Assembly (NCBI GenBank): GCA_934148845.1
Contig: CAKPDH010000001.1
Coordinates: forward strand, 251,963 to 315,962
From: an uncultured Bacilli bacterium
Lineage (GTDB): Bacteria; Bacillota_I; Bacilli_A; RF39; UBA660
Direction: 5' to 3'
Length of the DNA: 64,000 bases
The position numbers and the translations under genes were made by a program. Position 1 is the first letter of the stretch; each line of letters starts with the position of its first letter. The notes beneath the pieces are model-generated. The model did no database searches. It was not told the origin of the DNA and saw only the letters and a list, made by a program, of their open reading frames with translations. Shown here in pieces: positions 9,456 through 64,000 of the stretch.

Positions 9456-10310
9456 TTAGTTTTCGTTATTCTTTCTTACTTTACATACTAAATAGATACT
9501 TTCGCCTACTAAGCATACTAGTAATACTAAACTTAAAATCATCCAAGCATTAGAATTATTTTCTTTTACAATTTCTTTAGGTTGATCTTCAGTTTTACAT
9601 TCTTTTTTTACAGCTATCTTAAATTTAACATCTTCAAGTCTTTTTTTAAAATCTGTCTTTTCATCACAACTTGGAAGACTTTCTACTGCTTTAAGTGCTG
9701 CTTCATAATCATCATCTTGTAATGATTTTTCACTAGCTTCTACTAAAATTCTAGCTTTCTTTATTGCTTCTTGCTTTGCAGCTTCTGCTTCTGCCTCTTT
9801 TTTAGCTTTTTCCTCTGCCTCTTTTTTAGCTTTTTCTTCTGCTGCTTTTTTTGCCTCTTCTTGAGCTTTCTTTTCTGCTTCAGTCATAGCTGGGTTAACT
9901 TTAATATCAATTGCTGCTGCAAGACCTGCATATGTATTATCGCCATCACTTGCTTCTACATTAACATTAATTCTACCAGTACCTACACTAGTACCTTTTA
10001 CTGTTATTGCAAATACACTAGTACCACTACTTACACCGCTTTGTGAATATAGAGCATATCTATTTCCACTTTGGCTCATTTTAACAAAACCGCTTTGTTC
10101 TTTAGCACTTACTAAAGCTATAGAACCTGATGTACTAAAAGTTATATCAGCACCTCTAACTTTACTTATACCATTAACTTTTACGTAAATAGTTGTTTGC
10201 TTATTTATCTTAATTGTATTTGTACCTGCTAAACTTACTGATGCTGCTTTAACACTTGGTACAACTATTAAACATAATAATAAAGCAACTAAATATTTTA
10301 ACTTCTTCAT
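9456..10310 (-). CDS. Secreted, membrane-anchored surface protein: N-terminal cohesin-like beta domain, KE-rich coiled linker, C-terminal TM anchor
   Basis: Signal peptide MKKLKYLVALLLCLIVVPSVKA. A roughly 120-aa beta-rich domain resembles cohesin (ISKVRGADITFSTSGSIALVSAKE...). An (EEKAKKEA)n repeat follows. C-terminal hydrophobic anchor WMILSLVLLVCLVGESIYLVC-KVRK. Confidence 0.45.
   Translation of the reverse strand: MKKLKYLVALLLCLIVVPSVKAASVSLAGTNTIKINKQTTIYVKVNGISKVRGADITFSTSGSIALVSAKEQSGFVKMSQSGNRYALYSQSGVSSGTSVFAITVKGTSVGTGRINVNVEASDGDNTYAGLAAAIDIKVNPAMTEAEKKAQEEAKKAAEEKAKKEAEEKAKKEAEAEAAKQEAIKKARILVEASEKSLQDDDYEAALKAVESLPSCDEKTDFKKRLEDVKFKIAVKKECKTEDQPKEIVKENNSNAWMILSLVLLVCLVGESIYLVCKVRKNNEN
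9791..9838 (-). repeat. 24-bp tandem repeat (two or more copies) encoding the (EEKAKKEA)n linker
   Basis: ctgcctcttttttagctttttcct occurs twice in a row, with degenerate copies after it. Confidence 0.6.
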
Positions 10311-10318
10311 AATTCCTC

Positions 10319-11761
10319 CTATTTAAATATTTTATCACATATTTTAACAATATCTGTTATATTAACTTTACCGTCACTATTCATATCGGCAGCCATAAAT
10401 TGCCAATCATCAAGCTGAATCTTTTTAAACATTTGATCACAAGCTTTAACAACGTCTGTTATATCGATAACTCCATTAGAGCTAACATCACCTTTTACAA
10501 TTACTTTATAATGTGCATATTTGCTATTGTTTCTCATAACAAAGATATAAGTACCTGTTGCAAGTCTATTATTGTGTTTATCCTCTGCAACAATAGTTCC
10601 ATAATCAGATCTTAATCTATTAACAAAATTTTTAAGATTTAAGTCTTTACCATCATAATATATAAATTCAAAAAGATGATCAATTTTTATGAAAGAACTA
10701 TCTGATTCATTCTTTAGCTCAATTGGATAACCGCCATATAAATGTGCCTCAGTATATTTATATGCTTCTTCTAATCTATCAATTATTTCTTTTTCATATG
10801 GATAAAAATATTTTGAAATCATTGGAGAATTAATTTTAATTTTTGAATTAATTGTAGCAAATCTTGCATTTACTTTATCTTCAACTTCTTTTATATAATC
10901 CATTATTTCATATAACTTATTATTTGCCTCAATCTTAGTTTCTGGTTCAAAAGGTAAAACCGCGCTGTCAATAATGTCAATACGATTATCAAGCATGCCT
11001 TGTAGTTTTTCCTCTATTTTATTATAAACTTTATAATAATCTTCCTTTATTTTTTTATAATAATCAGAAAAAATTTCTTTAAAATAATCATCATAATCTT
11101 CTAAATGATATAAATTATATAAATTTTGCCATTTATTTATTTTTTCTTCATACTTTGAATATATATCATTTACTCTATCAAATTCATCTAAAGCCAAGTC
11201 AAATAGCCTTCTTGCATCAGCTACACTATTTAATGAATTAACTTTACTCTTAACACTATCATAATACATATCATAATAGATCTTAACTAAATTTTTAACT
11301 GGAGATTTTAATTCTTTTATCTCAGATCTTAATTCAATAAATAAATCAAGACTTCCAGTAACCCCGCCTGATACATGACTATTTAAATAGTCCTCAATTA
11401 TACTTAAGGTTTCTTTTAAATAATCTAAATTAGAAACTAATCTAGGCTTAATACTTAAAAGACTATCACTAGCTTCAGTATAACCATTACGTTTTAACTC
11501 ATCTATTACTAAATCAATAGATTTACTATAGTCTAAACTATCGAACTTGTGAATAAATGCTTTACTGTATATACCCTTAACACTAGAAGCATAACTATTC
11601 GACCAATCAGTTAAATCGCTTACTATAGTTTGTGCAACAGCACCAGCACTATTTACTCTACTAATTACTTCTAATTGCGTATAACTTCTAGCACTTGTTT
11701 TACTTATAAAACATACAAACAAAAAAGCAGTAACTAGGAGTAAATTTTTAAACTTCTTCAT
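10319..11761 (-). CDS. Secreted dockerin-domain protein with a non-catalytic helical N-terminal region
   Basis: Signal peptide. C-terminus has two 22-residue dockerin segments, GDVSSNGVIDITDVVKACDQMF and ADMNSDGKVNITDIVKICDKIF. The second matches the canonical Ca-binding DxNxDGxVNxxD exactly. Confidence 0.65.
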   Translation of the reverse strand: MKKFKNLLLVTAFLFVCFISKTSARSYTQLEVISRVNSAGAVAQTIVSDLTDWSNSYASSVKGIYSKAFIHKFDSLDYSKSIDLVIDELKRNGYTEASDSLLSIKPRLVSNLDYLKETLSIIEDYLNSHVSGGVTGSLDLFIELRSEIKELKSPVKNLVKIYYDMYYDSVKSKVNSLNSVADARRLFDLALDEFDRVNDIYSKYEEKINKWQNLYNLYHLEDYDDYFKEIFSDYYKKIKEDYYKVYNKIEEKLQGMLDNRIDIIDSAVLPFEPETKIEANNKLYEIMDYIKEVEDKVNARFATINSKIKINSPMISKYFYPYEKEIIDRLEEAYKYTEAHLYGGYPIELKNESDSSFIKIDHLFEFIYYDGKDLNLKNFVNRLRSDYGTIVAEDKHNNRLATGTYIFVMRNNSKYAHYKVIVKGDVSSNGVIDITDVVKACDQMFKKIQLDDWQFMAADMNSDGKVNITDIVKICDKIFK

Positions 11762-29075: not shown

Positions 29076-29666
29076 CTATGAACTACAAGTCTCAATTTTC
29101 AATTTATAATTTTTAATTTTAAACATAATACTACCATCTTGATCTGTTCTATATATTTTTGAATCACTCAAATTATTTAATACTTCTTTATTGGAATGAC
29201 CGTATCTGTTGTTTTTGCCAACACTAATAATGGAATAATTTAGATTTATTTCATTTATAAATTCTTTACTACTACTTGTTTTACTTCCATGATGACCAAT
29301 TTTTAATACATCAATACCAGATATATTATATTTATTTAATATGTCTTTCTCTTTTTCTACTCCAGCGTCTCCCATAAACATAAACTTATAACCATCAAGT
29401 TCAGTATAAATAACATTTGAATTATCATTTTCATTATCATATTCTTTTGTTTGTAAAAAATATAGTTTGTTATTATCTATATTTAATTTTTTAATACATG
29501 AATAATATTTTATTTTCTTTTTATCTAGTACTTTGATTAATTCTTTTTCTAATTCATTAAACTCTCCACAATTAAATATTACATTATCTACTTTAAAATT
29601 ATTTACTAAATTAATAGATTCTCCCATATGATCAAAATCGCCGTGTGGTGACATAAGTTTATGCAT
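29076..29666 (-). pseudogene. Duplicated 3' fragment of comEC (metallo-beta-lactamase domain)
   Basis: 196-aa ORF HGDFDHMGESINLVNNFKV...GHHGSKTSS. It is near-identical to the C-terminus of 31366..32472, with 100% DNA identity over 29297..29578 against 31585..31866. Confidence 0.75.
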
Positions 29667-29730
29667 ATGGATTTAATCAAAGAAAAAGAACTATCAAGTT
29701 GATGGTCCTTATATGATGTATCATAAAATA

Positions 29731-30450
29731 TCATTGTAACCTATTTTTAATTAATTGTTTAATATTTGAATCTTTTATTTTTTCAATTTGATCTTCAATT
29801 GAAGGATAATCATTATATCTAACTATCTTTGCTTCTGATTTATATCTATCGTGGCTAATCAGATCAATAGTCGGAGATTTTAAAGCTATATTAATTATTT
29901 TAAAATAGTACTCTTTTTCGTGTTCACTTTTTGAGTTCAAATATCTAAAAACAAAATATATGAATGAATCCATTTCATTTTTCAATATTTTCCAGTCTAA
30001 TTTAGGATTTTTATATACTATTAAATTTGTTTCATAAAATTCAGGTTCTACAGGTAAAACTGTAAAAAAAGGTTCACTAGAAACACCAATATTCCAGTTT
30101 GGATTATACATTTCACTAATTATAATATCTTTATACAATCTTTTAAAAACAGATCCATTGTATAGTTCAGAGTTTATAATAAAAATTATATTTCTACACA
30201 AATCAAAGTTCACACACAATTGAGTATTATCAACATCGTTTTCAATAATGCTTGCCATTAAATTTAAATCATCAACTCCATACTTTTTGTAAATATTATC
30301 AATCTTTTCTAAATAATGATTTCTTTCATCTGATTTTTTAAACTCATCATCTAATTCTTTTCTTGCAGCCATCTGATTATAATATTCAATCATATAAAAG
30401 TATTCACAAAGTTTATTAAAATCATTTATTTTTCTTATTAAAGTTTCCAT
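29731..30450 (-). CDS. Hypothetical protein (cargo of the comEC-duplication insertion)
   Basis: 239 aa with no recognisable motif. Confidence 0.55.
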   Translation of the reverse strand: METLIRKINDFNKLCEYFYMIEYYNQMAARKELDDEFKKSDERNHYLEKIDNIYKKYGVDDLNLMASIIENDVDNTQLCVNFDLCRNIIFIINSELYNGSVFKRLYKDIIISEMYNPNWNIGVSSEPFFTVLPVEPEFYETNLIVYKNPKLDWKILKNEMDSFIYFVFRYLNSKSEHEKEYYFKIINIALKSPTIDLISHDRYKSEAKIVRYNDYPSIEDQIEKIKDSNIKQLIKNRLQ

Positions 30451-30521
30451 AAAATCTCACTCCAATTAAAGATTATTATAACATAATATTATATAAACCG
30501 TACACGTATATATTAATACTT

Positions 30522-31349
30522 TTAATTTATAGTCTTTAATATCTTATTTTCTTTTTCTAACTCCTTCAAACTTTTCTTTGGTGTAAGCAAATTTTCAGGC
30601 ATAGTCCTATGATTTTTTTTAATTACCTTTCGAATATTTTTACCTATATTATAATGAGTTTTATTTGCATTATTTTCTCCTATAATATTATCTTCTCTCA
30701 ATGCTGCCTCTGTTTGAGTGATTCTAAACAAGTTAGCCCCTAATTCTTCACTACCCATATTATCTAAAATTTCTTCTCTATATCTTAAACCTTTTCTTTT
30801 GGCTATATCATTTGCAGTTTCTCCATTATATAGACCTTTATAACCACTATTATGAAACTTATCAAAGTTTTTAACTCCTGCATTTCTAGCTGCAATATTT
30901 AAAAAATAATTCCCTTTTTTAGTCAAATCTCTTTGATATAATCTTTTCTCATCTTCTGTTAGTTCATGATACTCTTTTTCAGAAAGTTCTTGTTTCCTTG
31001 TTTGAATAGCAAAGTAAGTTTGACCTAAAGCTACCGTTTTCTTTTTAGGATTAGCATTTTGAACAATTAAATAGCATATGTATCTAGATAATTTATAATC
31101 TTTAATTAATTCTTCTTTACCTTTACCAGTTTTTATTGGCTTCCTGACTTCGGGAAGCCAATATGAATCATCATTGATGCTATTTCTATAAGATATTACC
31201 GCTTTTTTGATTACATTATCAAAATTTTCCCACTTACTATATTCAAGTAATGGCATTAATTCTCGCGCAAACCAATATTCGTTGCCAAACTCATCTATAT
31301 GTTTAATATCTTCAAATATTTTTTCAGTATATTCTTTTATTTCATTCAT
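30522..31349 (-). CDS. dinD: DNA-damage-inducible protein D (DinD family, BRO-N/KilA-like N-terminus)
   Basis: FARELMPLLEYSKWENFDNVIKKA...LSRYICYLIVQNANPKKKTVALGQTYFAIQTRKQE matches the remembered E. coli DinD blocks (SARELAPLLDYRDWRNF...LSRYACYLVVQNGDP...GQTYFAIQTRR). Confidence 0.75.
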   Translation of the reverse strand: MNEIKEYTEKIFEDIKHIDEFGNEYWFARELMPLLEYSKWENFDNVIKKAVISYRNSINDDSYWLPEVRKPIKTGKGKEELIKDYKLSRYICYLIVQNANPKKKTVALGQTYFAIQTRKQELSEKEYHELTEDEKRLYQRDLTKKGNYFLNIAARNAGVKNFDKFHNSGYKGLYNGETANDIAKRKGLRYREEILDNMGSEELGANLFRITQTEAALREDNIIGENNANKTHYNIGKNIRKVIKKNHRTMPENLLTPKKSLKELEKENKILKTIN

Positions 31350-31365
31350 TTTATTAATCTCCTTT

Positions 31366-33360
31366 CTATTGGCTACAAGTTTTAATTTTTAATTTATTAT
31401 TTTTAATCTTAAATATAATACTTCCATCTATGTCTGTTCTATATATTTTTGAATTACTTAGATTATTCAAGACTTCTTTATTAGGATGTCCATAACGATT
31501 ATTCTTTCCAACACTAATTATTGAGTACTTTGGGTTTGCCTCATTTATAAAAGACTTACTACTGCTTGTCTTACTTCCATGGTGTCCAATTTTTAATACA
31601 TCAATACCAGATATATTATATTTATTTAATATGTCTTTCTCTTTTTCTACTCCAGCGTCTCCCATAAACATAAACTTATAACCATCAAGTTCAGTATAAA
31701 TAACATTTGAATTATCATTTTCATTATCATATTCTTTTGTTTGTAAAAAATATAGTTTGTTATTATCTATATTTAATTTTTTAATACATGAATAATATTT
31801 TATTTTCTTTTTATCTAGTACTTTGATTAATTCTTTTTCTAATTCATTAAACTCTCCACAATTAAATACCACGTTTTTTACCTTAAAATTATTTACTAAA
31901 TTAATTGCTTCTCCCATATGGTCAAAATCTCCATGTGTAATTATAAGATAGTTTATTCTCTTTATACCATTACTTTTTAAATAACTTATTGTATTATCAA
32001 TTATATTTTTATTATACACTCCTCCTGTATCTATTAATATATTACTTTTATTTAATTTAACAAAAGTAGAATCTCCTTGCATTACGTCTAAGTATGTAAC
32101 AAAGGAATCTTTTTTAAATAGATTAATATTATTGTGAATTAATATTGTAATAAAAAGAAGTAATATATAAATATATTTTTTTCTTATAAATTTATATAAT
32201 ATGAAAGTAATTAAAATATAATAATATATTATAAAAAATATATTTATTTTAGATAATATTATTTCTATTTTATAGTTTGATATAAATAAGTTTAATTGTT
32301 CTAATATATTTATTAAATATATGTATAAATTATCTAATATAGGTATAAATAATACTAAAATAGCCATAGGAAATATTATAATTGATATAAGTGGTACAAA
32401 TATCATATTATTAAATATAGTAAGAAGATTTATACTAAAATAATTATTAATTAATATAGGTATACTAGACATAAAAGCTATTAAAGATGTAATAAATATC
32501 TTTTTTATATATGTATTACATCTTCTAATTAATAAGTTAAATATAATTAAATAAAATGATACGATATAACTAAATTTAAAGCCTATATTATATATACTAA
32601 AAGGATTTATTATTATTGCAATAGTAAAACATAATATAAATATTTTATAATTTTTTATATTAAAATTTAGTATTCTATTAAATGTATAAAGTATAAAGAA
32701 TAATAAAGAGCGTATTACTGATAATGAAAAACCAGTAAGAAATGAAAATATAAATAAAAATATTATAGTTATAATATAGTTTATATTACCTTTTTTAATT
32801 TTATTTAAAATAAATAATATAATAGTTGATATTAAAGATATATGACTACCTGATATTGAAAATAAATGGCTTATGCCATTTATTCTATATGAAGTTTTAA
32901 TATTTTTTTTATATAATTATTATAACCTAGTATAAATGAGTATAAATATTCACGTGTTTTTAATTTATCTATTCTTTTTATTATATATTTTTTTAATTCA
33001 TATAATAATGATGTATTTTTCTTTAATATAGTTATATTATCTGCATGCATCTTATAATAAGTTTTTTTACTTAACATATATTTTTTATAATTAAATAAAT
33101 TAAATATACTATTTTCTTCATATGAAGATAAAGTTCCACTTGCTTTAATTTTATCTCCTAAGTTAATATTCATATTTGATTTATTAAAGTATACTCTAAC
33201 ATTTTCTTTATTTTTAACTGTATATATTATATTTTTATCACTTACTTCTATATTTGATACATATCCTATTACATACCTAGTATCTAAGTTATAATTACTA
33301 TCTACCTTTGTATATTTAATTATATATATTAAAGAAAATACTAAGAGAATTAGATAAAAT
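31366..33360 (-). pseudogene. comEC: comEC (DNA internalisation channel), apparently disrupted
   Basis: All three ComEC domains are present: the N-terminal DUF4131-like region (...MNINLGDKIKASGTL...), the competence domain (HLFSISGSHISL) and the MBL domain (HGDFDHMG...GHHGSK). The reading frame shifts by -1 after the T8 run at 32903..32910. No ATG, GTG or TTG start lies upstream of MNINL. Confidence 0.65.
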
Positions 33361-33363
33361 ACA

Positions 33364-34065
33364 TTAGAGTTTAATATAATCTTTAATTTTTGAATAAAGT
33401 TTATCCCCTATACCAGAGACATTTTTAATATCTTCTATATTTTTAAATTCTCCATTCTTTTCTCTATATTCTATAATAGCCTTAGCCTTAGTTTCTCCAA
33501 GATATGGTATATTAATTAAATCTTCTACTGTACAAGTATTAATGGATACTAAAGCACTTTTTACGTCATTATCTAAATTATCACTAGTACCATTTGTATT
33601 AACAGTATCATCTTTATTAATACAAGCATCATTTATATTATCAGGACATACACATTCATATTCAATATATATAATTTCTTTATCTTGCTTTTTATATTTT
33701 TCTACTTCGTCATTAGAATATATTATTATAATCATTTCATCGGTTATTTTTTTGCTTAAATTAATATACTCTGTATTAGCGCCATCTATAAGTCCACCCG
33801 ATAATTTTATTACATCAATTATTCTACTATCTTTTGCAAGCTCATATACTCCAGGCTTTTTTACAAAGCCTTTTATATCTACTTTTAATAATTCTGGTTC
33901 TTTATTTTCTACACTTGTTATATTTTCTATATTAGTATTATCTAATTCTTTAGTATCTTCTACTTTTCCTTGTACATCTATAACTACAAATAATAATATC
34001 ACTAAAATTAATATTATTAATATAAATAATTTATATTTATCTAAATAGTATTTTATTTTATTCAT
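33364..34065 (-). CDS. comEA: ComEA (DNA receptor; SLBB plus tandem HhH)
   Basis: TM anchor, then GFVKKPGVYELAKDSRIIDVIKLSGG (SLBB), then C-terminal EDLINIPYLGETKAKAIIEYREKNGEFKNIEDIKNVSGIGDKLYSKI (HhH). Confidence 0.85.
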   Translation of the reverse strand: MNKIKYYLDKYKLFILIILILVILLFVVIDVQGKVEDTKELDNTNIENITSVENKEPELLKVDIKGFVKKPGVYELAKDSRIIDVIKLSGGLIDGANTEYINLSKKITDEMIIIIYSNDEVEKYKKQDKEIIYIEYECVCPDNINDACINKDDTVNTNGTSDNLDNDVKSALVSINTCTVEDLINIPYLGETKAKAIIEYREKNGEFKNIEDIKNVSGIGDKLYSKIKDYIKL

Positions 34066-47667: not shown

Positions 47668-47697
47668 AAGCTTCAGCCTTTGCTGAAGTCTTTTTAA
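47668..47697. terminator. Bidirectional intrinsic terminator (gcttcagc-ctttgc-tgaagtc)
   Basis: A perfect hairpin flanked by A-runs and T-runs, between convergent genes. Confidence 0.6.
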
Positions 47698-49424
47698 TAT
47701 GATAAATCATTTGTAGATGATGCAGTAGGTGCAAAATCACTCATAGGTATAGATATTACTGGTCTATATGTACGAAAATTTTCGTCTATGGATATTGGCA
47801 CAGTAGATATATATTTTTTATCTCTTTCATCTTCATAGCTATCTTTTTGAAATGCCATAGTTGTATTATCATAAAGATATCTTTTATTATTATTATATGA
47901 ATCTAATAAATCAAAAGAGTTTGGTGCACTAAGAGTATAACGACCATTAACCTCTGAAAGGGTATAGAACCTTAAAATGTCTTTCTTCGTATCAAGTAAA
48001 GCTTGAATTTCTTCTTTGGTAGCAAGCCTAGCTTTTAGGTTCGGTGCTTGCCAAGATGCATGACTTATATCAGATGAACTTGTAGCATATCTATTAAGAA
48101 TATATGTTGTATTACCTATTGTATATATTCCATAATATCCATTTGATGAATTTTTTGCATTATATGGATCCCTAAAATTTATATTAATATTTGGTACATT
48201 CCAATCTTTTGTTTCATTATAAATAGTTTGCATAATAGAAACAGGTCCAAATAAATTACTGATGGTACTTTCTTTAGGATAACCAAATTTGGCTTTTAAA
48301 TTATTAAAATCTGAGTTTTTTATCCAATAATATATATTAGGTACTCCACCATATTCAGATTCTGACATTAGATTTATTAGATTGTTTTCTGAATCTATAC
48401 TTAAAATATAATAACGTCCAAATAAAAGTTTATGATTATTAATCTTTTTTTTATCAGGCCCAGATATGTTACAATAATATTCATCGCCTATTTCAAATAT
48501 AAGTTTATTATTTTCATCTAATTTTGGAACAGTTGCAATAATAGCCCATTCTGGGTGCTTATAATGATCTGAAAGTACCTTATTTCCTCCAGCATCTATT
48601 GTAGCAATACAAGTAGAAGTTATACTTACTTTACACTCACCTTTAAGCTTTATATCATATGAAAATCTTGAGCCACTATATTTAACTTCTACACTGTAAT
48701 CAGTAACCGGAAGATCATTATAAGTAGTGAAAGCTCCTAAACCTAGCATATTTTCGTTTATAAGAGTTGATACTTTTATACAGTATGTATTTCCATCTCT
48801 CTCTGAAAATTTATCAGGATATTTTGATACAAACTCCTTAGCAGCACTTATTATAGCTTCTTTTATACATTCATCATTATTTGTAACAACTGTTATATCT
48901 GATAAAGCATCTAATTTAACATCTTTGATTATTTTAGGTATATATTTATAAACATTTTTTGTGGAATCATAATCCGCTAGCACTATACAAGCGCTACATT
49001 TTCCTTCTTTTGTACATTTATCATAGTCTATTATTTGTTCAGTACATTCATCTACCATTTCATAGTGATAGCCACCACTATATGTTACTTTTACTATGTT
49101 TTTAGCTTTTACATTTTCATTATCATAATCTTTTAGATAACCTTTTCCCTTTAAAGTATCTACAGCTACACAATATGTATTAGTTGTTACTTTAGGATAA
49201 TTACGACTGTTATCTGAAATATATAAATCTAATGCTCTAAATATTATATTTTCATAGCTAGTATTAATAGCAAGTTCCTTATTTTTAACACTACCTGTTA
49301 TTTTGGGTAGTACTATTAACATTATTCCTATAATTAATATTATTACACTAAGCAGTTCTATTAATGTAAAACCATCTTTAGATAATGACTCTCCCCCCCC
49401 CCCGAAGCGTACGTTTGTTTTCAT
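47694..49424 (-). CDS. Large type IV prepilin-like protein (class III signal, G|FTLIELL) with a 530-aa C-terminal extracellular domain
   Basis: MKTNVRFGGGGESLSKDG|FTLIELLSVIILIIGIMLIV, with Glu at +5. A G11 homopolymer lies in codons 7-11. Confidence 0.65.
   Translation of the reverse strand: MKTNVRFGGGGESLSKDGFTLIELLSVIILIIGIMLIVLPKITGSVKNKELAINTSYENIIFRALDLYISDNSRNYPKVTTNTYCVAVDTLKGKGYLKDYDNENVKAKNIVKVTYSGGYHYEMVDECTEQIIDYDKCTKEGKCSACIVLADYDSTKNVYKYIPKIIKDVKLDALSDITVVTNNDECIKEAIISAAKEFVSKYPDKFSERDGNTYCIKVSTLINENMLGLGAFTTYNDLPVTDYSVEVKYSGSRFSYDIKLKGECKVSITSTCIATIDAGGNKVLSDHYKHPEWAIIATVPKLDENNKLIFEIGDEYYCNISGPDKKKINNHKLLFGRYYILSIDSENNLINLMSESEYGGVPNIYYWIKNSDFNNLKAKFGYPKESTISNLFGPVSIMQTIYNETKDWNVPNININFRDPYNAKNSSNGYYGIYTIGNTTYILNRYATSSSDISHASWQAPNLKARLATKEEIQALLDTKKDILRFYTLSEVNGRYTLSAPNSFDLLDSYNNNKRYLYDNTTMAFQKDSYEDERDKKYISTVPISIDENFRTYRPVISIPMSDFAPTASSTNDLSY
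49393..49403 (-). repeat. Homopolymeric G11 tract (C11 on plus) inside the 5' end of the prepilin gene; candidate phase-variation switch
   Basis: ttc ggg ggg ggg gga gag encodes F-GGGG-E. An 11-nt G/C run in a genome of about 24% GC. Confidence 0.6.
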
Positions 49425-51653: not shown

Positions 51654-52388
51654 TCAAGAGTCATGATTTAATAATTTATTTATTATTAATAATATAATAA
51701 CTATTAGTCCTGTTATAAATAATTTAAATGTAAAATTATTTATAAGCGTTATAAAAAACTTAGAAAAATAACTATTTGTATATACAAATTTATCAAATAT
51801 ATTAAATATTTTTATAACTAGATATGGACATAATAATAATATTGAGCTTGAAAGTATGCTCGTTTTTAAGAATTTTTTATCTTTATTTAATATTAATAAT
51901 ATAACACTAATAACTATTATTACAGTTATCACTGATATAGTAATAAAGAGCTTATTATTTAAATATAATTTATGAATCATATTATATTCACGAGTTGGAA
52001 ATAAATTATATGTATATATATCATTTATTTCCTTAGCGTATCTTTTATTTATTGATATATCATTTGTATATGAATCTATAATATTATAAAGATCTATATA
52101 TCTATTAACACTCTTACCATTTATAATATTTTTTATATCTGATTTTATCATATTAATTGTAAAATATTCTAAATACTTATTTTTAATTTCCTTATTTATT
52201 ACAAAATTACTTACTTCTTCTTTTATATTATTGAATGCTAAATCATAATAGTTAATTTTATTTAAATTATTTAAAATACTTTTTTTAGTAAGTGTACTTT
52301 CAAGTGATATAAATAAAGTAAAAATAGTTAAAATAATCATAAGAGTAAATGATAAAACATGACTAATACTACTTTTCATTTGTATCAC
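51654..52388 (-). CDS. Hypothetical membrane protein
   Basis: 244 aa. N-terminal TM, mid TM and C-terminal TM segments. No motifs. Confidence 0.5.
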   Translation of the reverse strand: MIQMKSSISHVLSFTLMIILTIFTLFISLESTLTKKSILNNLNKINYYDLAFNNIKEEVSNFVINKEIKNKYLEYFTINMIKSDIKNIINGKSVNRYIDLYNIIDSYTNDISINKRYAKEINDIYTYNLFPTREYNMIHKLYLNNKLFITISVITVIIVISVILLILNKDKKFLKTSILSSSILLLCPYLVIKIFNIFDKFVYTNSYFSKFFITLINNFTFKLFITGLIVIILLIINKLLNHDS

Positions 52389-53538
52389 CTAACCATTCAC
52401 TTTTAATATTTTCTAAATATACAACTATTCTTTTATTACCGTATATATCTTTATTAGGATAACAAGTATATAATATAAGATCATAATCTTTTTTTATACT
52501 ATCATAATTATCTTCTAAAACGATCTTACTTGTCTTTACTTCATATGTAAATTTGCCATAAACTGTTTCTATAACTACTTTATCCGATTTTTTTAAGGAA
52601 TGTAGTTTTTTAAATATGCCTGTATTATGAGCTGATAGTACTGTAGCATTTTCTTCACCCGGCATAGAACTAAAGCTAGCTTGCCCAATTCCATCTTTAA
52701 GTATACTAGAACTATCTCCAAAATATACATCATCACTATCATCATCTATATATAATTTGCCATATTTTTCTCCATAAGATGGATATGATATTATTTTTTC
52801 ATCTTTAGCTACTACTTCTTTTTTAGAATTACTATAATTAACATTCATAAGAGTAATTATATCAAGATACATACTTATTTTATCATTAAATATTAGCATT
52901 ATAGGTAACAATAATATTGTTATATAAAGTAAACTTGTTAAAATTATAGATTTATATTTTAAAATTTTAAGAATGATTACAGATATAAATGTAATAATTA
53001 AAGTTATTATAATATATTTAAGAATTTTATTCATACCTACATAATTAAGTTTATCTTTTGTACTAATAACATCAGATAAAACACCATTATCATAAATTTT
53101 AATCTCATTTGTACTAGTATCTATAATAACCTTTGAAGTATCTTTACTAGTATTGGAATTATCATTAGAATCACTATCTATAATTTTCTTAGAGTTAAGT
53201 ATAATATTACTTGTCTCATTATATAATGAATATAATTCATTCTTTAAGTAATTAGGTATTTTATTTTTATCCTCAACTGAGCATACACTATATTCATTAA
53301 TTCTATTAACAACATATTTCATATTATTATATATTTTATTTAAATCACTTTCACTAACATCACGCTCATTTAATAATCTAGTATAAGATGCTTTAGTACC
53401 ATTTACAAGTGCTTGAGTTTTAGATGAACAAGTTTTAATACTAGAAGCTAAGGATATGATATCTTCTTTTGTATATGCATATACATTTGGTATTATAGCA
53501 ATTAAAAACATAATCATTAAAATTCTTATATATTTCAT
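52369..53538 (-). CDS. Sortase-domain protein with an extra N-terminal secreted domain and two internal TM segments
   Basis: C-terminal catalytic domain has VLSAHNTG (His), LILYTCYP (the TLxTC Cys) and NKRIVVY (Arg). The N-terminal 170 aa follow a signal peptide. Confidence 0.55.
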   Translation of the reverse strand: MKYIRILMIMFLIAIIPNVYAYTKEDIISLASSIKTCSSKTQALVNGTKASYTRLLNERDVSESDLNKIYNNMKYVVNRINEYSVCSVEDKNKIPNYLKNELYSLYNETSNIILNSKKIIDSDSNDNSNTSKDTSKVIIDTSTNEIKIYDNGVLSDVISTKDKLNYVGMNKILKYIIITLIITFISVIILKILKYKSIILTSLLYITILLLPIMLIFNDKISMYLDIITLMNVNYSNSKKEVVAKDEKIISYPSYGEKYGKLYIDDDSDDVYFGDSSSILKDGIGQASFSSMPGEENATVLSAHNTGIFKKLHSLKKSDKVVIETVYGKFTYEVKTSKIVLEDNYDSIKKDYDLILYTCYPNKDIYGNKRIVVYLENIKSEWLGDTNEK

Positions 53539-57006: not shown

Positions 57007-57245
57007 AATACTCCTTAATCTAACTATTATTTTCTTGATAAATTAAATCTATATTAGTTATTCCTATACTTTTTAAATAAGCTATATTATCTCTAACCAA
57101 TTCATAATTACAAGCCATATTTAAAACTATATCATACCAAAATAAATTTATCATTTTGTTAATTAAATCATCATTAATACCGATTAATTAAAAATTCATC
57201 TATCATACTAACACCTATTTAATTATAGCAAAAAAATATACTTAT

Positions 57246-57854
57246 TTAAAGTATATTAGTACAAGATTTTACAAAATATTTAAATATATTATTTTGAAGT
57301 TTATCATATTTAATCATAGACTCAGGGTGCCACTGAACACCTAGAAAAAATTTTTTACTTTTATCTTCTATTGCTTCTATATAATTATCATTACTATAAG
57401 CACTTATAAAAATTTTAGGATTTAAAATAACACTCTTATGTCTACTATTAACTTTTATTATGTCTTTTTTATATATATTATATAATAAAGAATTTCTTTT
57501 TATTTTAACTTCATGAGAATAATATAATTTTTTCTTATGGTTAGCAATATTAATCATATCTGATTCAAATAAAATTCCCATAAGTTGCATACCTAAACAT
57601 ATACCAAGCACTGGTTTATTTATATCATATATATATTTTAAAGCTTCTAAATCATATAACTCAAAATCATCTCCACCACTAAAGATAATTCCATCACATA
57701 AATCTATAAGGCTCTTATAATTTTGATCTAAAGTAATACCTATACAATCTCCACCATTGTAATTAATTGCTTTAATTATATCTGTATAAACATAATTAAT
57801 TAAATGTCCCTCACTACTTCTAGATTTTCTTGTTACAATACCAATTAAAGGCAT
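57246..57854 (-). CDS. Class I glutamine amidotransferase-like hydrolase (peptidase C26 / gamma-glutamyl-GABA hydrolase family)
   Basis: ...PVLGICLGMQLM... with the catalytic Cys, then ...GVQWHPE. Confidence 0.7.
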   Translation of the reverse strand: MPLIGIVTRKSRSSEGHLINYVYTDIIKAINYNGGDCIGITLDQNYKSLIDLCDGIIFSGGDDFELYDLEALKYIYDINKPVLGICLGMQLMGILFESDMINIANHKKKLYYSHEVKIKRNSLLYNIYKKDIIKVNSRHKSVILNPKIFISAYSNDNYIEAIEDKSKKFFLGVQWHPESMIKYDKLQNNIFKYFVKSCTNIL

Positions 57855-57902: not shown

Positions 57903-58916
57903 TTATACTGATGGAATAGCGCATGTATCTTTTTTATATGAAATAGAAGTACCGGGTGGAAATGCATTTTCTCCAATAGTAACATCGCCCTCACATGCAT
58001 ATATTACTACTTCCTTAAGATTAGAATTATTATAAAACGCATAATCACCTATTGTTAAAGTAGATGGAGTAACAACCATTGCTAATAAAGAAGCATCTAC
58101 CTTTTTATTTTTAGAATTAAATACACTTAGATTTGTATCATCGTCTCTTAGACTAGTATCACTACTAACATAATTTCCTATATATAATTCTTTTATATTA
58201 TTGTTACTAAAAGCATATGAGCCTATTGTCTTAACAGAACTTGGAACATACAGTCTAGTTAAATTATTGTCTTCAAAAGCATTTGACTCAATAGTTGTAA
58301 TATAATAATCAAGTGTTACTGACTTTAAACCTTTACCTTTAAATGTTGAGCTTCCTATTTTAGAAATAGATCCGTCCCCTACATATATATTTTTATTATC
58401 ACAATTATAAGCTATATAACTTGAACTATTTTTAGTATAACAACTATCTTTTGGAACAACTTTACATCCATTTACATTTTCAACATTAAAATTATTTCTA
58501 CTTGAATCTATTGATATCGAATAATTGCTATATTGAAGATCATATATATTATCTACCTCACCATTTTTTATAACAATTTCCCCGCAAGATGGTCTATCAT
58601 TTTGAATACCTATATTTAAAGACCCACCATTAATTGAAAGTCCTCTTTTACAGCTTAAATCAGAATTTATTCCATTTAAACAGAAATTTCCATCACTATT
58701 TATAAAATATATTCCATCACGAATATAATAGCCTTTTACTTTTAAGTTAATTATATCAGCATCTAATACATTTGCATACATTCTAGCACTGCTAATAGCG
58801 CTATTTTTTTTAGAATCACTTATTACATTTAATACTATTGGAGTAACAATAGTAGCAACTATTCCAAGAAGTAATATAACTGCAAGCAATTCTATAAGTG
58901 TAAATCCCTTTTTCAT
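57903..58916 (-). CDS. Type IV prepilin-like protein fused to BspA-type leucine-rich repeats
   Basis: True start is MKKG|FTLIELLAVILLLGIV, with the RBS ggtaggtga 4 nt upstream. The longer track ORF would begin upstream of the promoter. The C-terminus has ...IESNAFEDNNLTRLYVPSSVKTIGSYAFSNNNIKELYIGN... LRR units. Confidence 0.6.
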   Translation of the reverse strand: MKKGFTLIELLAVILLLGIVATIVTPIVLNVISDSKKNSAISSARMYANVLDADIINLKVKGYYIRDGIYFINSDGNFCLNGINSDLSCKRGLSINGGSLNIGIQNDRPSCGEIVIKNGEVDNIYDLQYSNYSISIDSSRNNFNVENVNGCKVVPKDSCYTKNSSSYIAYNCDNKNIYVGDGSISKIGSSTFKGKGLKSVTLDYYITTIESNAFEDNNLTRLYVPSSVKTIGSYAFSNNNIKELYIGNYVSSDTSLRDDDTNLSVFNSKNKKVDASLLAMVVTPSTLTIGDYAFYNNSNLKEVVIYACEGDVTIGENAFPPGTSISYKKDTCAIPSV

Positions 58917-58922
58917 ATATTC

Positions 58923-58960
58923 ACCTACCATTAATATAATTATAAAAAAAAAGACATATA
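58923..58960 (-). promoter_or_regulatory. Sigma-A promoter of pilin::LRR gene 1 (TTGACA, 17-nt spacer, TATAAT) with a T9 tract in the spacer
   Basis: Minus strand reads ttgacaatatatgtctttttttttataattatattaatggtaggtgaatatATG. Confidence 0.6.
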
Positions 58961-58963
58961 TTG

Positions 58964-59305
58964 TCAATTCTTTATTAATTGTTTATTTTTAATATTATTT
59001 ACCCTATTATATTTTTTTATTATATCTTTACTCAATAAATAATCAATATAAGAATCAATAGAATAAAAGTTAATTTCTTTAAATATATAGGTAAAATACT
59101 TACTATATATATTCAAATATTTATTAATATCTAATTTAACTATATTTAGTTCCATATTTGTAAGTCCCAAATATAAACCTAATATCTTTTTATCATTTAT
59201 AGACAATATTTCACCTTCTATACTTATCTCTAAATTCTTAATTAAATCATATACATACATACCTCTATATATAGCACTTTTAACTTCAATCAATTCTTCC
59301 TTCAT
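58964..59305 (-). CDS. Hypothetical protein between the two pilin::LRR genes
   Basis: 113 aa with no motif. Coding status uncertain. Confidence 0.4.
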   Translation of the reverse strand: MKEELIEVKSAIYRGMYVYDLIKNLEISIEGEILSINDKKILGLYLGLTNMELNIVKLDINKYLNIYSKYFTYIFKEINFYSIDSYIDYLLSKDIIKKYNRVNNIKNKQLIKN

Positions 59306-59382
59306 ATATCCTCCTTTTTAGTACTATAATATTATTACATATAAAATTTAAAAAAAATGTCGAAAAAAAACTTATACAAAAG

Positions 59383-60861
59383 TTATCCTGTATAAGTTAC
59401 ATCTCCATCAGTATATTTAATAACCGTTCCTTTAGGAAATACGCTTGATCCAAATGTAACGGCCCCTTTAGGGCTATTAATTGTTACTGTTGGATTGTAA
59501 TATTGTTCCTTACAACCATTTGACTTATAGAAAGCTTTGTAACCTATATAACTAATTCCACTACCAATAGTAATTTCTCTCAAAGGATTGCAATGAAATG
59601 CATTATCTTCTATACTAGTTACACTATCTGGAATTATTATACTAGTTAAGTTGTTATTTTCGAAAGCTTTGGAACCTATATCACTAAGACCATCTGGTAA
59701 AACTATCTCAGTTAAATTGTTATTTTCGAAAGCCCCTCTCGCATAATTACTTCCAATAGTTTTAAGCTCAGATGGTAACGTTAATTTAGTTAAATTAGTG
59801 CTTGCAAATGCACCTCCTGATATCGTAGTTATTTTATTTGGTAAAACTAATGTTTCTAATTTATTACCAGCAAAAGCATCATCACCTATACTTGTTACAC
59901 TATCTGGAAATTCAATTTTTGTAATGGAATTATAGCCAAATCCAGTTAATTCCGTAAGCTTAATATCATTAGGAAATTTAATTTCAGTAATATTGTTACC
60001 CTCAAAAGCATATTTACCTATACTTGTTACACTATTTGGTAATTCTAGTGTTCCTGTTATATTGTTATATCTAAATGCAGCATCACCTATTTTTTTTATG
60101 TTTTTTCCTAAATTAACTTTATCTATTTTCATTGCATTTATAGTAAAATCTTGATTGCAAAAAGCACATGTACCAATTGATTCAACACTATTTGGAATAT
60201 CTAAGATTCCAGTAATATTGTTACCCTCAAAAGCATATTCACCTATACTCGTTATATTACTTGAAAGAATAACTTTTGTAATGTTTTTTCTGTTAAAAGA
60301 CCATTCACCAATGACATTTACATCATCTGGCATTATAACACTCCTAGGACAGAAATTATAATTAGTACTATTATTTTCGTTATCATAGTATCCAGTAACA
60401 GCCTTTTCGGTAATTGCAAAACAACCACTAAAGCATTTATATCCTTCTTCTACTGTATAATTATTATTAGTCTTGTTTATTGAATATTTGCTAGATTGAA
60501 CATTTTCAAGTTCACTTACTTTTCCATCACTTACCCTAACGTAACCACAAGAAAAATTATTTGATTTAAGTCCTAAATCAATAGTTTTACCTGAGCAAGT
60601 GGAATCAGCTTGGATTATTCCAATACAAAGTAACCCATTATTCATAATAGAATAAGTACCATCACCTATTTTATTTTTATTCATTCTTTCATTTATAATA
60701 GCTTCATTAACAGCTTTTACATATACTTTAGCACTGTTAACAACGCTTTCTTTTTTTGAATCTTCTATTACATCTAGTGCTTTTGGTACTGTTATTAAAG
60801 CTATGAAGCCAAGTATTAAAATAACAGCTATAAGCTCTATTAATGTAAAACCTTTTTTCAT
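59383..60861 (-). CDS. Type IV prepilin-like protein fused to BspA-type leucine-rich repeats (paralog 2, more repeats)
   Basis: Start MKKG|FTLIELIAVILILGFI. More than 10 LRR units (NNITGILDIPNSVESIGTCAF, NNITGTLELPNSVTSIGKYAFEGNNITEI...). Confidence 0.6.
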   Translation of the reverse strand: MKKGFTLIELIAVILILGFIALITVPKALDVIEDSKKESVVNSAKVYVKAVNEAIINERMNKNKIGDGTYSIMNNGLLCIGIIQADSTCSGKTIDLGLKSNNFSCGYVRVSDGKVSELENVQSSKYSINKTNNNYTVEEGYKCFSGCFAITEKAVTGYYDNENNSTNYNFCPRSVIMPDDVNVIGEWSFNRKNITKVILSSNITSIGEYAFEGNNITGILDIPNSVESIGTCAFCNQDFTINAMKIDKVNLGKNIKKIGDAAFRYNNITGTLELPNSVTSIGKYAFEGNNITEIKFPNDIKLTELTGFGYNSITKIEFPDSVTSIGDDAFAGNKLETLVLPNKITTISGGAFASTNLTKLTLPSELKTIGSNYARGAFENNNLTEIVLPDGLSDIGSKAFENNNLTSIIIPDSVTSIEDNAFHCNPLREITIGSGISYIGYKAFYKSNGCKEQYYNPTVTINSPKGAVTFGSSVFPKGTVIKYTDGDVTYTG

Positions 60862-60867
60862 ATAATC

Positions 60868-60912
60868 ACCTACCATTAATATAATTATAGAAAAAAAGAT
60901 AAATATTGTCAA
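60868..60912 (-). promoter_or_regulatory. Sigma-A promoter of pilin::LRR gene 2, near-identical to the promoter of gene 1 (T7 tract in the spacer)
   Basis: Minus strand reads ttgacaatatttatctttttttctataattatattaatggtaggtgattatATG. It overlaps the mutS stop. Confidence 0.6.
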
Positions 60913-63443
60913 TCTATCTTTTTTAGTTCATATAATGTATTTAATGCTTCAATAGGAGTCATATTTAATACATCTAATTCTTTAATTTTCTTTTCTATTT
61001 TAGATTCCTCTTTAGATTCTAATAAGTCAAGTGGAAATGATTCTTGAATTTTAATATCTCTTTTTTTCTCTCTTGATTCATATACGCTTAATATATCACT
61101 AGCTCTTTTTATTAATTTATCTGGTAGTTTAGCTAGACTTGCTACATGAAGCCCATAACTTTTATCTACGCTACCATCTTTTATTTTATGTAAAAATGTT
61201 ATATTACCATTTTCTTCTAAGGCAGAAACATGTACATTTTTTAAATGTTTAAGATTATTCTCAAGATCAGTTAATTCATGGTAATGTGTAGAAAACATCA
61301 TTTTACATTTAATATTATCGTGTATATATTCAATAATTGCTTGTGCGAGTGCCATACCATCAAAAGTTGCAGTACCTCTACCAAGTTCATCAAATAATAA
61401 TAAAGAATTGCTTGTAGCATTACTAATAGCATTATTAGCTTCTTTCATCTCAACCATAAAAGTTGATTCTCCACTAACTAAATCATCACTAGCTCCAATT
61501 CTAGTATATATAGCATCAAATATTTTTAATTTAGCCTCCGTACAAGGAGTAAAACATCCTATTTGAGCCATTATAACTGTTATTGCAAGTTGTCTCATAT
61601 AAGTACTTTTACCTGCCATATTAGGTCCTGTTATAAGTAATATATTTTTATCTTCATTGAATATTATATCATTAGATACATATTCACTATTTAATACTTT
61701 TTCAACTACAGCATGTCTATTATCTTTTAAATAAACTACATTATCTTTTGTAAGTACTGGTCTAATATAATTGTTTTCTTCACTAACGGTAGCAAAAGAT
61801 TGTAATACGTCAATTTCACTAATAACTTTTGCTATTTCTTGTATTGGTTTTATATATTCTTTTATTTTATCTCTAATATTTATAAATAATTCATATTCTA
61901 AATTAATTATTTTTTCTTCTGCATTTAATATTAACGATTCTTTTTCTTTTAATACAGGACTTATATATCTCTCACAATTACTTAAAGTTTGTTTTCTTGA
62001 ATATCCATAAGATTCTTTAACTAAATTAGTCATGCCTTTAGATACTTCTATATAATATCCAAATACTTTATTATATCCTACTTTTAATGTCTTAATACCT
62101 GTTCTTTGTCTTTCTTCTAATTCAAAACGTGCGATAAAATCTTTTCCATTTGATCTAATGTCTTTTAAAGAATCAAGTTCACTATTAAAGCCATCTTTAA
62201 TTAAGTATCCTTCCTTTATACCTATAGGTGGATTTTCATATATACTATTTTCAAGTAAATCATATAAAGAATCTAATGTATCTATTTTAGTATAACCAAT
62301 AGATTTTAGTATTTCATTTATTTCAGGTAAAACTTTTAATGACCTTTTAAGTTGCAAAAGGTCTCTTGCATTTGCATTTAAAAATGCAATTCTACCACTA
62401 AGTCTTTCTAAATCATATACTTCATTTAATAAATTTTTTAAATCTTCTCTTAATATAAATTTACTAATTAACTTATCTACTATATCATATCTTTTATTTA
62501 TTTCATCTATATCAACTAAAGGATTTTCTATGTATGTTTTAAGTAATCTAGATCCCATAGCTGTTTTAGTCTTATCAAGTAACCAAATAAGAGAATACTG
62601 CCTTTGTTTAAGTCTTAACGTTTCTGTAAGCTCTAAATTTCTTTTAGTATGTATATCCATGTGTAAATACTTATTAGGTACTTTTACTATAGCTTTCTGT
62701 AAATGAGATAAATCAGTCATTTTTATATTTAATATATATGTTATTAAATATTTAACAGATGTAACTTGATTCTCATCTTTTATATCACTAAATACATATG
62801 AATATTCATCTAAAGGTTCAATTAAATCATTAATAGTAATTGATATATCAAACTGATTTTTTAATATATTAATTATATTTTTGTCAAAATTAGAATTAAC
62901 TATTACTTCTTTTAATCCTAAATTTATAACTTCATTAACTAAACTTGTTTGATTATAAAGACAATTTGTAACATAAATTACACCTGTAGTAATATCAGCA
63001 TAACTAATTATGTAAGAATACTTAGTATCCATAACAAAACCTATATAATTAAAATCATTTTCCTTTAAAGATTCACTACTTATAACAGTACCTTTACTAA
63101 TTATTTGAGTAATACCTCTTGAAACTATACCTTTAGCATTTTTAGGATCTTCGAGCTGTTCACATATACCAATTTTATATCCTTTTTCTATCATTTTTTC
63201 TATATAAATAGAAACAGCATGATATGGAACACCACACATAGGTACTTTTTCATCTAATCCTGCATTTCTTCCTGTTAGTGTAAGTTCAAGTTCACGAGAA
63301 GTTGTAACAGCATCTTCAAAAAATACTTCATAGAAATCTCCTAATCTATAAAATATTATAACATCCGGATATTCCATCTTAACGCTTATATAATGCCTCA
63401 TCATAGGAGAGACTTTATCTAAATCTACATCACTTAATTTCAT
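60909..63443 (-). CDS. mutS: DNA mismatch repair protein MutS
   Basis: 844 aa. N-terminal mismatch-binding TPMMRHY...GDFYE. Walker A GPNMAGKST. Helix-turn-helix at the C-terminal end. Confidence 0.9.
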   Translation of the reverse strand: MKLSDVDLDKVSPMMRHYISVKMEYPDVIIFYRLGDFYEVFFEDAVTTSRELELTLTGRNAGLDEKVPMCGVPYHAVSIYIEKMIEKGYKIGICEQLEDPKNAKGIVSRGITQIISKGTVISSESLKENDFNYIGFVMDTKYSYIISYADITTGVIYVTNCLYNQTSLVNEVINLGLKEVIVNSNFDKNIINILKNQFDISITINDLIEPLDEYSYVFSDIKDENQVTSVKYLITYILNIKMTDLSHLQKAIVKVPNKYLHMDIHTKRNLELTETLRLKQRQYSLIWLLDKTKTAMGSRLLKTYIENPLVDIDEINKRYDIVDKLISKFILREDLKNLLNEVYDLERLSGRIAFLNANARDLLQLKRSLKVLPEINEILKSIGYTKIDTLDSLYDLLENSIYENPPIGIKEGYLIKDGFNSELDSLKDIRSNGKDFIARFELEERQRTGIKTLKVGYNKVFGYYIEVSKGMTNLVKESYGYSRKQTLSNCERYISPVLKEKESLILNAEEKIINLEYELFINIRDKIKEYIKPIQEIAKVISEIDVLQSFATVSEENNYIRPVLTKDNVVYLKDNRHAVVEKVLNSEYVSNDIIFNEDKNILLITGPNMAGKSTYMRQLAITVIMAQIGCFTPCTEAKLKIFDAIYTRIGASDDLVSGESTFMVEMKEANNAISNATSNSLLLFDELGRGTATFDGMALAQAIIEYIHDNIKCKMMFSTHYHELTDLENNLKHLKNVHVSALEENGNITFLHKIKDGSVDKSYGLHVASLAKLPDKLIKRASDILSVYESREKKRDIKIQESFPLDLLESKEESKIEKKIKELDVLNMTPIEALNTLYELKKID

Positions 63444-63557: not shown

Positions 63558-64000
63558 TTATATTTTTATTCCTTTACCATCAAAATAATTATCAATATCT
63601 TCTTTTATATAAGAGTTCTTGTAATCTTTATATCCTAATACTAAATCTAATAAAAGATTTTTATCTTTTATAGAGTAATCAATTAACCCCTTTAAATTAG
63701 TTTCTATTTTATTTATGACTTGAATGTCATATATAAATATTGGCTCACCATTATCTTGTTGATATTTTTTATATTTATAATATTTATTTATTATATAATT
63801 AATAAGATTAAAATAATAACTTTCATTATAATTATATAAATCAATAAGAAAATATACTATATCATCTGGAAGCCTATCTTCTATACAATTACACAAATCA
63901 TCTAAATTAAAATCTCTAGAATAATATAATAAATCATAAATATAATTTTTTGATATTTTCAAAAGTTTTTTATTTATACTTTCATCTATTTCATCAAGAT
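63558..64000 (-). CDS. Hypothetical protein. The frame stays open to the window edge, so the true start may lie outside.
   Basis: The track ORF (63558..63962) begins at a TTG. The upstream frame has no stop through position 64000. Confidence 0.4.
   Translation of the reverse strand, partial: LDEIDESINKKLLKISKNYIYDLLYYSRDFNLDDLCNCIEDRLPDDIVYFLIDLYNYNESYYFNLINYIINKYYKYKKYQQDNGEPIFIYDIQVINKIETNLKGLIDYSIKDKNLLLDLVLGYKDYKNSYIKEDIDNYFDGKGIKI

Follow-up and report, generated by a model that had tools for sequence, protein, structure and literature searches.

Tandem prepilin genes with BspA-type leucine-rich repeats beside mutS in an uncultured gut Bacilli bacterium: predicted modular type IV pilins with strain-variable repeat modules

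Two tandem minus-strand genes of an uncultured human-gut Bacilli bacterium raise the question of whether a type IV pilin serves as the carrier of a large leucine-rich repeat (LRR) module, and of whether the T-tracts in their promoters switch expression of these genes on and off. The genes, designated A and B, lie downstream of mutS in a 64-kb stretch of contig CAKPDH010000001.1 (here called the window; positions refer to it, and features are collected in Table 1). An earlier reading of the window (here called the original prediction) suggested that both genes encode type IV prepilins fused to BspA-type LRRs, that their promoters resemble slipped-strand-regulated fimbrial promoters, and that, together with a third prepilin in the window, they may form an undescribed adhesin family. 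Profile searches, structure prediction, and a comparison of syntenic loci indicate that A and B are true prepilin-LRR fusions. We consider it rather probable that they belong to the modular type IV pilins as defined by Raynaud et al. 2021 (PMC8179133), with a gene upstream of mutS (gene C) as a third paralog, and that they act by the mechanism proposed below.

The N-terminus of both proteins reads MKKG/FTLIELxAVIL (the slash separates Gly-1 from Phe+1) and includes Glu+5, followed by Gly+14 and Pro+22. Gly14 and Pro22 of the mature proteins, which correspond to Gly18 and Pro26 of the precursors, are helix-breaking residues typical of T4a pilins. Both proteins pass the cutoffs of Pfam N_methyl (PF07963; 22.1 bits for A and 26.8 bits for B; cutoff, 21.2 bits) and NCBIfam TIGR02532 (26.3 and 30.4 bits, respectively; cutoff, 16.3 bits), which confirms the predicted class III (prepilin) signal in both paralogs; weaker NCBIfam matches of the N-termini are GspG, ComGC, and PilA. 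F+1, T+2, L+3, E+5, and L+6 are invariant across all aligned homologs, and the motif G/FTLIE is invariant over hundreds of relatives. In alignments of 18, 58, and 127 relatives, Glu+5 is invariant, ≥90% of the sequences keep Pro+22, and Gly+14 is the majority residue in consensus sequences. An AlphaFold model of A, computed with 18 homologs as input (mean predicted local distance difference test score [pLDDT], 84.9), contains an alpha1 helix of the canonical pilin length (residues 7 to 60, 54 residues), a small head of beta strands (residues 68 to 158), and a linker (residues 162 to 169) with a pLDDT of <50 between two confident modules. When the PDB was searched by sequence with the N-terminal 162 amino acids (aa), the matches were exclusively type IV pilins and pseudopilins (MshA, PilE1, and PilA), with MshA as the best match (3e-6; aligned residues 2 to 80). 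Because the cutoffs are passed, the model contains the helix, and the PDB sequence matches are only pilins and pseudopilins, the signal and alpha1 of A and B are firmly pilin-like.

It is scarcely credible, in light of these data, that A and B are ordinary Sec-secreted BspA-like proteins that resemble prepilins by chance and are cleaved by signal peptidase I or retained by a plain signal anchor. The N_methyl score of A, which barely exceeds its cutoff, and a Foldseek search with the beta head, which returned no significant pilin-like match, would agree with such an explanation; TIGR02532, however, is well over its cutoff in both proteins, the G/FTLIE motif is kept throughout the relatives, alpha1 has its canonical length of ~54 residues with Gly14 and Pro22, and the PDB sequence matches extend to residue 80. 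A profile of the whole pilin module (~140 positions) also argues against chance resemblance: it matched 113 cluster representatives at an E value of ≤1e-30 and 15,399 at ≤1e-10 (among 1.84 billion).

The C-terminal parts of the proteins are equally clear. Pfam LRR_5 (PF13306; cutoff, 27.7 bits) matches A in four stretches (1.9e-72, 241.5 bits) and B in two (2.5e-20, 73.1 bits), the NCBIfam LRR matches are to the streptococcal adhesin HupY/LrrG, and at the DNA level a 66-nucleotide (nt) repeat unit is present in 11 copies. In the model of A, the solenoid spans residues ~174 to 483 and has a fold like that of solved BspA/TpLRR-type proteins; structure prediction thus places the repeats behind the pilin helix, as had been predicted, with the head and the linker in between. 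In both proteins, N_methyl and LRR_5 stand on one polypeptide, and in the model of A a short linker joins the two modules; this is the architecture of a modular pilin. Comparable LRR surface proteins of the BspA family include Tannerella forsythia BspA, Treponema TpLRR/LrrA, pneumococcal PcpA, group B streptococcal HupY/LrrG, and the Bacteroides/Eubacterium structural-genomics LRR proteins 4fs7 and 4h09. These proteins are known to use Sec signals and to be anchored as lipoproteins or by choline-binding, LPXTG, or T9SS modes, whereas the carrier of the LRRs in A and B is a pilin module. On the basis of this kinship, A and B are probably surface adhesins.

The architecture itself is already known. 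Modular pilins were defined from Streptococcus sanguinis PilB, and the InterPro survey of the same study (PMC8179133) lists the combination IPR012902-IPR026906, which is identical in domain architecture to A and B, in its Dataset S1 and Fig. 8. With 18 proteins and 6 more having two LRR_5 domains, it ranks among the 15 most frequent architectures, and the LRR domain was counted under "no clear function." That catalog comes without locus anatomy, promoters, population variation, or a taxon focus. In the literature searched, there was no study of a pilin-LRR fusion and no PF13306 + PF07963 combination beyond the catalog entry. A search with A returned many metagenomic proteins with PF07963 and PF13306 in dozens of clusters, including a protein of an NCBI "Bacilli bacterium" metagenome-assembled genome (MAG) annotated merely as an LRR protein. 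The proposal of an undescribed family therefore has to be abandoned; the locus adds to the known architecture a natural series of alleles and a compact promoter layout.

Two modular pilins have been studied by experiment: PilB (pilin + vWA) and PilC (pilin + lectin) of S. sanguinis, both of them subunits of filaments (PMC8179133, PMC9934059). A and B resemble them in that a class III signal and a small pilin module are followed, after a short linker, by a bulky C-terminal module for binding that has no particular tie to pilus biology, in being encoded by a monoderm Firmicute, and in the proposed role of a tip adhesin. They differ in that the module is a BspA-type LRR solenoid instead of a vWA or lectin domain, that the module of A is swapped between strains, and that the genes are stand-alone units beside mutS with their own consensus promoters and no pil operon or machinery nearby; moreover, A and B are known from sequence alone.

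In the wider clade, the same pilin module is joined to many other C-terminal modules. All of the best 127 representatives found with the module profile contain N_methyl, and 43 of them contain LRR_5; the others carry Flg_new, DUF285, DUF6273, Ig-like, or Fib_succ_major domains or no known domain. Among the matches listed, the GTDB relatives come almost entirely from MAGs of uncultured gut Bacilli, "Tenericutes," or Erysipelotrichaceae; a single genome often holds several of them, and their identity is at most 41%. Among 58 large pilin-like open reading frames (ORFs) from related MAGs, DUF6273 is found in 8, LRR_5 in 6, and DUF285 in 4. One Hadza "uncultured Bacilli" MAG (L091:1276-12037) carries five tandem paralogs of ~680 to 690 aa, all with a class III signal.

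The upstream regions of A and B are as closely matched as had been proposed. Their promoters are the only perfect (12/12) TTGACA-17-TATAAT sequences on either strand of the window, compared with a mean of 0.14 expected from shuffling (two matches were reached in 2 of 100 shuffles), and 50 of the 54 positions from -35 to ATG are identical between the two genes. The direct repeat that contains them begins exactly at -35 and reaches into the alpha1 codons, beyond which a similarity of ~76% continues over ~200 nt. The two promoters thus arose by duplication of a promoter/5' untranslated region (UTR)/alpha1 segment, the sharing of which also identifies A and B as paralogs. The stop codons (TGA) of mutS (60911..60909) and of a 113-aa gene located between A and B (58966..58964) sit inside the -35 hexamers of promoters A and B, respectively, and therefore the duplicated unit starts precisely where the upstream ORF ends. 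This arrangement also bears on the gene boundaries first assigned (57903..58967 and 59383..60912): the 3' ends were correct, but the starts belong to mechanical TTG-start ORFs, the TTG being the first half of the -35 hexamer. At the end of A lies an intrinsic terminator with a folding free energy of -16.1 kcal/mol (z score, -4.57; none of 200 shuffles was equally stable), which a consensus terminator scan missed because its stem is AT rich. The hairpin and T run make A a self-contained transcription unit. Since each gene is a unit of its own with a perfect promoter, and A has its own terminator, expression of A and B is probably strong, constitutive, and not phase variable, as judged from these signals.

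The T-tracts of these promoters had suggested the opposite. Slippage in T7 or T9 would alter the -35/-10 spacing and could thereby switch the genes on and off, since both tracts are placed inside the 17-nt spacers and any change in length would shift promoter geometry. Contingency loci with repeats in the promoter spacer include Mycoplasma hyorhinis vlp (poly-A), Bordetella pertussis fim (poly-C), and Haemophilus influenzae hif (TA repeats), and A and B are like them in that the promoter of a gene for a surface structure carries a homopolymer between its -35 and -10 elements. We compared 18 syntenic loci, obtained through exact-protein look-ups, from independent human-gut assemblies (Hadza and other ENA and Logan samples). 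The tract of promoter A was T7 in 18/18 assemblies and that of promoter B was T9 in 19/19, from different people and cohorts, and the optimal 17-nt spacer was retained in every case, even where a wholly different coding allele lay downstream; as assemblies are consensus sequences, these counts give the majority length, and low-frequency subpopulations are visible only at the read level. Tracts of 7 and 9 nt, unlike those of vlp, fim, and hif, are thus invariant here, and they are shorter than the tracts at classic contingency loci. Although runs as long as T9 are rare in the window (4 runs of ≥9), T7 is a commonplace run in DNA with 23.7% GC (141 A/T runs of ≥7 in 64 kb, or 2.2 per kb). Phase variation is accordingly rejected at the between-strain level, and phase-variable expression of A and B appears very unlikely. 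An invertible promoter was also rejected: the inverted repeats around the promoters are weak and AT rich, none is common to A and B, and all assemblies have the promoters in one orientation.

Strains differ in the repeat modules. Gene A occurs in at least six length classes (395, 473, 484, 492, 545, and 561 aa) with 12 distinct sequences. Between alleles, residues 1 to 70 (alpha1) are 95 to 98% identical, and the pilin head is of two types (27% identity between types and 95 to 100% within a type). The LRR arrays of different classes share 22 to 48% identity, and a C-terminal tail is common to some allele classes only. The DNA flanking the gene is nearly the same between strains (99.4% identity at the 3' end of mutS and 99.2% in the downstream amidotransferase gene). 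In the comparison of A with the L002 allele, DNA similarity ends at 60347 and restarts at 59395. Gene B is near constant at 359 aa, and an alignment with P0128 shows that the 337-aa form of the window strain and of L014 lacks exactly one 22-aa repeat. The ratio of nonsynonymous to synonymous polymorphism (pN/pS) is 0.47 in the LRR part of B and 0.73 within the 492-aa class of A, compared with 0.08 in mutS and 0.09 in the amidotransferase gene.

This pattern fits a swapping of whole LRR arrays of A between strains by homologous recombination, in which the putative arms would be the conserved 5' end of the pilin part and the flank on the 3' side. Unequal recombination between the 66-nt units would add or remove single repeats, and variation would target the binding module rather than the promoter. 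Antigenic variation of Neisseria PilE offers a parallel, as it also combines a conserved N-terminal pilin helix with a highly variable exposed C-terminal part and mosaic alleles that point to recombination. In A, however, the variation is observed between strains, whole 300-aa repeat arrays are exchanged instead of mini-cassettes, and silent cassettes are absent from the window: a tblastn search of the window with six A alleles for pilS-like copies matched A and B only.

A mechanism consistent with these features can be proposed. A prepilin peptidase encoded elsewhere in the genome would remove the 4-residue leader MKKG, and the hydrophobic N-terminal half of alpha1 (alpha1N; Glu5, Gly14, and Pro22) would hold the protein in the membrane and would most probably permit a small number of copies to be built into the tip of a type IV filament (a type IV pilus or a Com-type filament). 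The short flexible linker would then present the BspA/TpLRR-type solenoid on the cell surface as a ligand-binding (adhesin) module. A pilus-tip role would be plausible.

To locate pilus machinery, all ORFs of the window were read, phmmer searches were run with Pfam-verified PilB/T/C/D/M/N queries from L050, and the 10 kb past each end were looked up. A prepilin peptidase, an assembly ATPase, a platform protein, and a small major pilin were all absent from the window and from the 10 kb beyond either end; phmmer found no PilD homolog in the window, in L001-L018, or in L099-L103, and there were no T2SSE or T2SSF homologs in the window or the 10 kb on each side, nor any homolog of PilT, PilM, or PilN. 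The 10-kb flanks hold housekeeping genes and gene C. The remainder of the window is made up of housekeeping genes, a large polysaccharide-synthesis cluster, CpsB/C/D-type genes, a sortase, comEA, and a comEC fragment, the last two of which hint at a Com system. With no such machinery in the window or its 10-kb flanks, the incorporation of A and B into a filament is inferred.

An alternative is that the class III signal and alpha1 serve only to export the protein and to anchor it in the membrane, and that the LRR module reaches through the wall unpolymerized; such display would still depend on a prepilin peptidase and would resemble that of archaeal sugar-binding proteins with class III signals. 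We regard this as a serious possibility, though an unlikely one. It would account for the absence of type IV filament machinery near A and B and near most large pilin-like genes of related MAGs, for genes that are scattered, multicopy per genome, and equipped with strong promoters of their own, for the very diverse C-terminal modules, and for a bulky 35-kDa module that would be sterically awkward within a filament. It sits poorly with the retention of a full pilin-like alpha1 and beta head instead of a bare anchor, and with the conservation described above of Gly+14, of Pro+22, and of Glu+5, a residue of subunit-subunit contacts in filaments, and the modular pilins studied so far, PilB and PilC of S. 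sanguinis, are subunits of filaments (PMC8179133, PMC9934059). A relative in an uncultured Erysipelotrichaceae MAG (L068:1495-3865) also argues for filaments: this 341-aa modular pilin-like gene directly follows an ORF for a weak T2SSE-like ATPase (phmmer, 1.6e-9 to PilB) and is among the few such genes adjoining possible assembly machinery.

Our preferred reading of A and B as modular pilins at a filament tip has points against it as well. No component for their processing or assembly was found in the window or its 10-kb flanks. Stand-alone promoters with a perfect consensus point to abundant expression, and this is not usual for a minor pilin present in low copy. The prediction of adhesion comes from the fold family only. 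Finally, pN/pS is below 1 throughout, so that a claim of positive selection on the modules is unsupported.

Two further genes with similar N-termini were examined. Gene C, a third paralog with N_methyl and LRR_5, lies outside the window, upstream of mutS on the same contigs. It encodes 372 aa in the strain type of the window and 350 aa in others, a difference of one 22-aa repeat, and its promoter (TTGTAA...TGCTAAAAT) is unlike those of A and B. Next to it comes an acidic ORF of 305 aa without a Pfam match, the 3' part of which corresponds to window positions 63558..63962. Within the window, the only class III-signal proteins are A, B, and a 576-aa protein, the third prepilin of the original prediction. 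Its N-terminus is indeed class III-like, but its placement in one family with A and B is not supported: only the signal and alpha1 are common (residues 15 to 84 are shared with the pilin module; hhalign probability, 97%), there is no LRR and no Pfam match, and the C-terminal 490 aa are without a family match. The length of this protein differs between strains (573 aa, 576 aa, and shorter fragments).

Table 1. Coordinates of features at the pilin-LRR locus and elsewhere in the window (or in the locus named)
Feature	Position	Strand	Remarks
Gene A, predicted modular pilin, 492 aa	59383..60861	-	ATG start at 60861; leader MKKG, codons 1-4; alpha1, residues 7-60; beta-sheet head, 68-158; low-confidence linker, 162-169; BspA-type LRR solenoid, ~174-483 (~59413..60342)
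Strain-variable cassette of A (LRR array)	59395..60347	-	No DNA similarity to the L002 allele; flanks 93-97% identical there
Gene B, predicted modular pilin, 337 aa	57903..58916	-	ATG start at 58916; pilin module, codons 1-160; short LRR_5 array from ~residue 166
Promoter A	60884..60912	-	-35 TTGACA, 60912..60907; 17-nt spacer; -10 TATAAT, 60889..60884
T7 tract, promoter A spacer	60897..60891	-	
Ribosome-binding site (RBS) GGTAGGTGA of gene A	60866..60874	-	4 nt before ATG at 60861
Promoter B	58939..58967	-	-35 TTGACA, 58967..58962; 17-nt spacer; -10 TATAAT, 58944..58939
T9 tract, promoter B	58952..58944	-	Last T is the first base of -10
RBS GGTAGGTGA of gene B	58921..58929	-	4 nt before ATG at 58916
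105-nt direct repeat, copy 1	60809..60913	-	Promoter, 5' UTR, and first 17 codons
105-nt direct repeat, copy 2	58864..58968	-	84% identity to copy 1; spacing, 1945 nt
Intrinsic terminator of A	59363..59398	-	Hairpin overlaps stop codon; then eight T, the first two paired in the stem
113-aa orphan ORF between A and B	58964..59305	-	Own RBS AAAGGAGG
mutS	60909..63443	-	Gene A directly downstream
Class I glutamine amidotransferase-like gene	57246..57854		After B
Gene C	L099:7806-8924; L100:7872-8924; L101:3273-4325		In L099, ~1.6-2.7 kb past window position 64000
576-aa class III-signal protein	47694..49424	-	16-residue leader, SKDG/FTLIELL
comEA	33364..34065		

The 113-aa gene between A and B has no Pfam or NCBIfam match and no homolog beyond its own cluster among 5.8 billion proteins. 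This species-restricted orphan is found in 18/18 loci with a pN/pS of 0.05, which indicates strong purifying selection, and it may serve the pilin genes in an accessory or regulatory capacity. On the other side of B, the amidotransferase-like gene and the NUDIX/APH gene are separated in most strains by a 4.3-kb insert (window 57007..57245 versus L001:4499-8824). It contains four genes (134, 620, 590, and 102 aa) without Pfam matches and is absent from the window strain and from L014/L099.

Several other loci of the window show unusual features. In the comEC region (29076..32472, minus strand), a 368-aa ORF (31366..32472) matches ComEC residues 308 to 660 only, a 196-aa ORF (29076..29666) is a near-identical copy of the metallo-beta-lactamase end of that ORF, and two unrelated ORFs lie between them (29731..31349), which suggests that comEC was rearranged by an insertion with duplication of its 3' end. 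The sortase (52369..53538, minus strand), located within the CpsB/C/D-like capsule block, has its best matches in class D and scores above the cutoff of sortase_fam TIGR01076; it carries a 230-residue N-terminal extension and internal membrane segments. As read from their sequences, a 480-aa secreted protein (10319..11761, minus strand) ends in two dockerin-like repeats (DVSSNGVIDITDVV... and DMNSDGKVNITDIV...), and its 284-aa neighbor (9456..10310, minus strand) combines a signal peptide, a K/E/A-rich stalk, and a C-terminal membrane anchor.

A broader interpretation, which we offer tentatively and consider rather doubtful, is that the pilin module is a general-purpose surface-display carrier in this low-GC gut Bacilli clade, with the LRR cassette being exchanged at the mutS locus. 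It draws on the dozens of independently transcribed genes per clade that lie away from pilus operons and on the range of modules grafted on the pilin carrier (i.e., LRR, DUF6273, DUF285, Ig-like, lectin, and unknown modules). If true, the carrier would do on the basis of a pilin what sortase/LPXTG display does elsewhere, with specificity switched at the level of strains, and this might include an LRR-decorated filament in which a strongly expressed modular pilin is the major subunit.

Modular pilins are a recently recognized route by which type IV filaments acquire new binding functions. The versions studied carry vWA and lectin modules and come from one streptococcus, and the LRR version ranks with the most common architectures in databases. 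The locus described here provides a test case for it in an abundant uncultured human-gut lineage (found in Hadza, Nepali, and industrial cohorts), with two to three paralogs and simple strong promoters, and the tempting reading of the T-tracts as a driver of phase variation is removed. The same pilin carrier with at least six unrelated LRR arrays constitutes a natural allelic series that would be of use for mapping ligand specificity, and that could address both what drives the swapping (i.e., host immunity, phage, or niche) and whether bulky modules are located at the filament tip.

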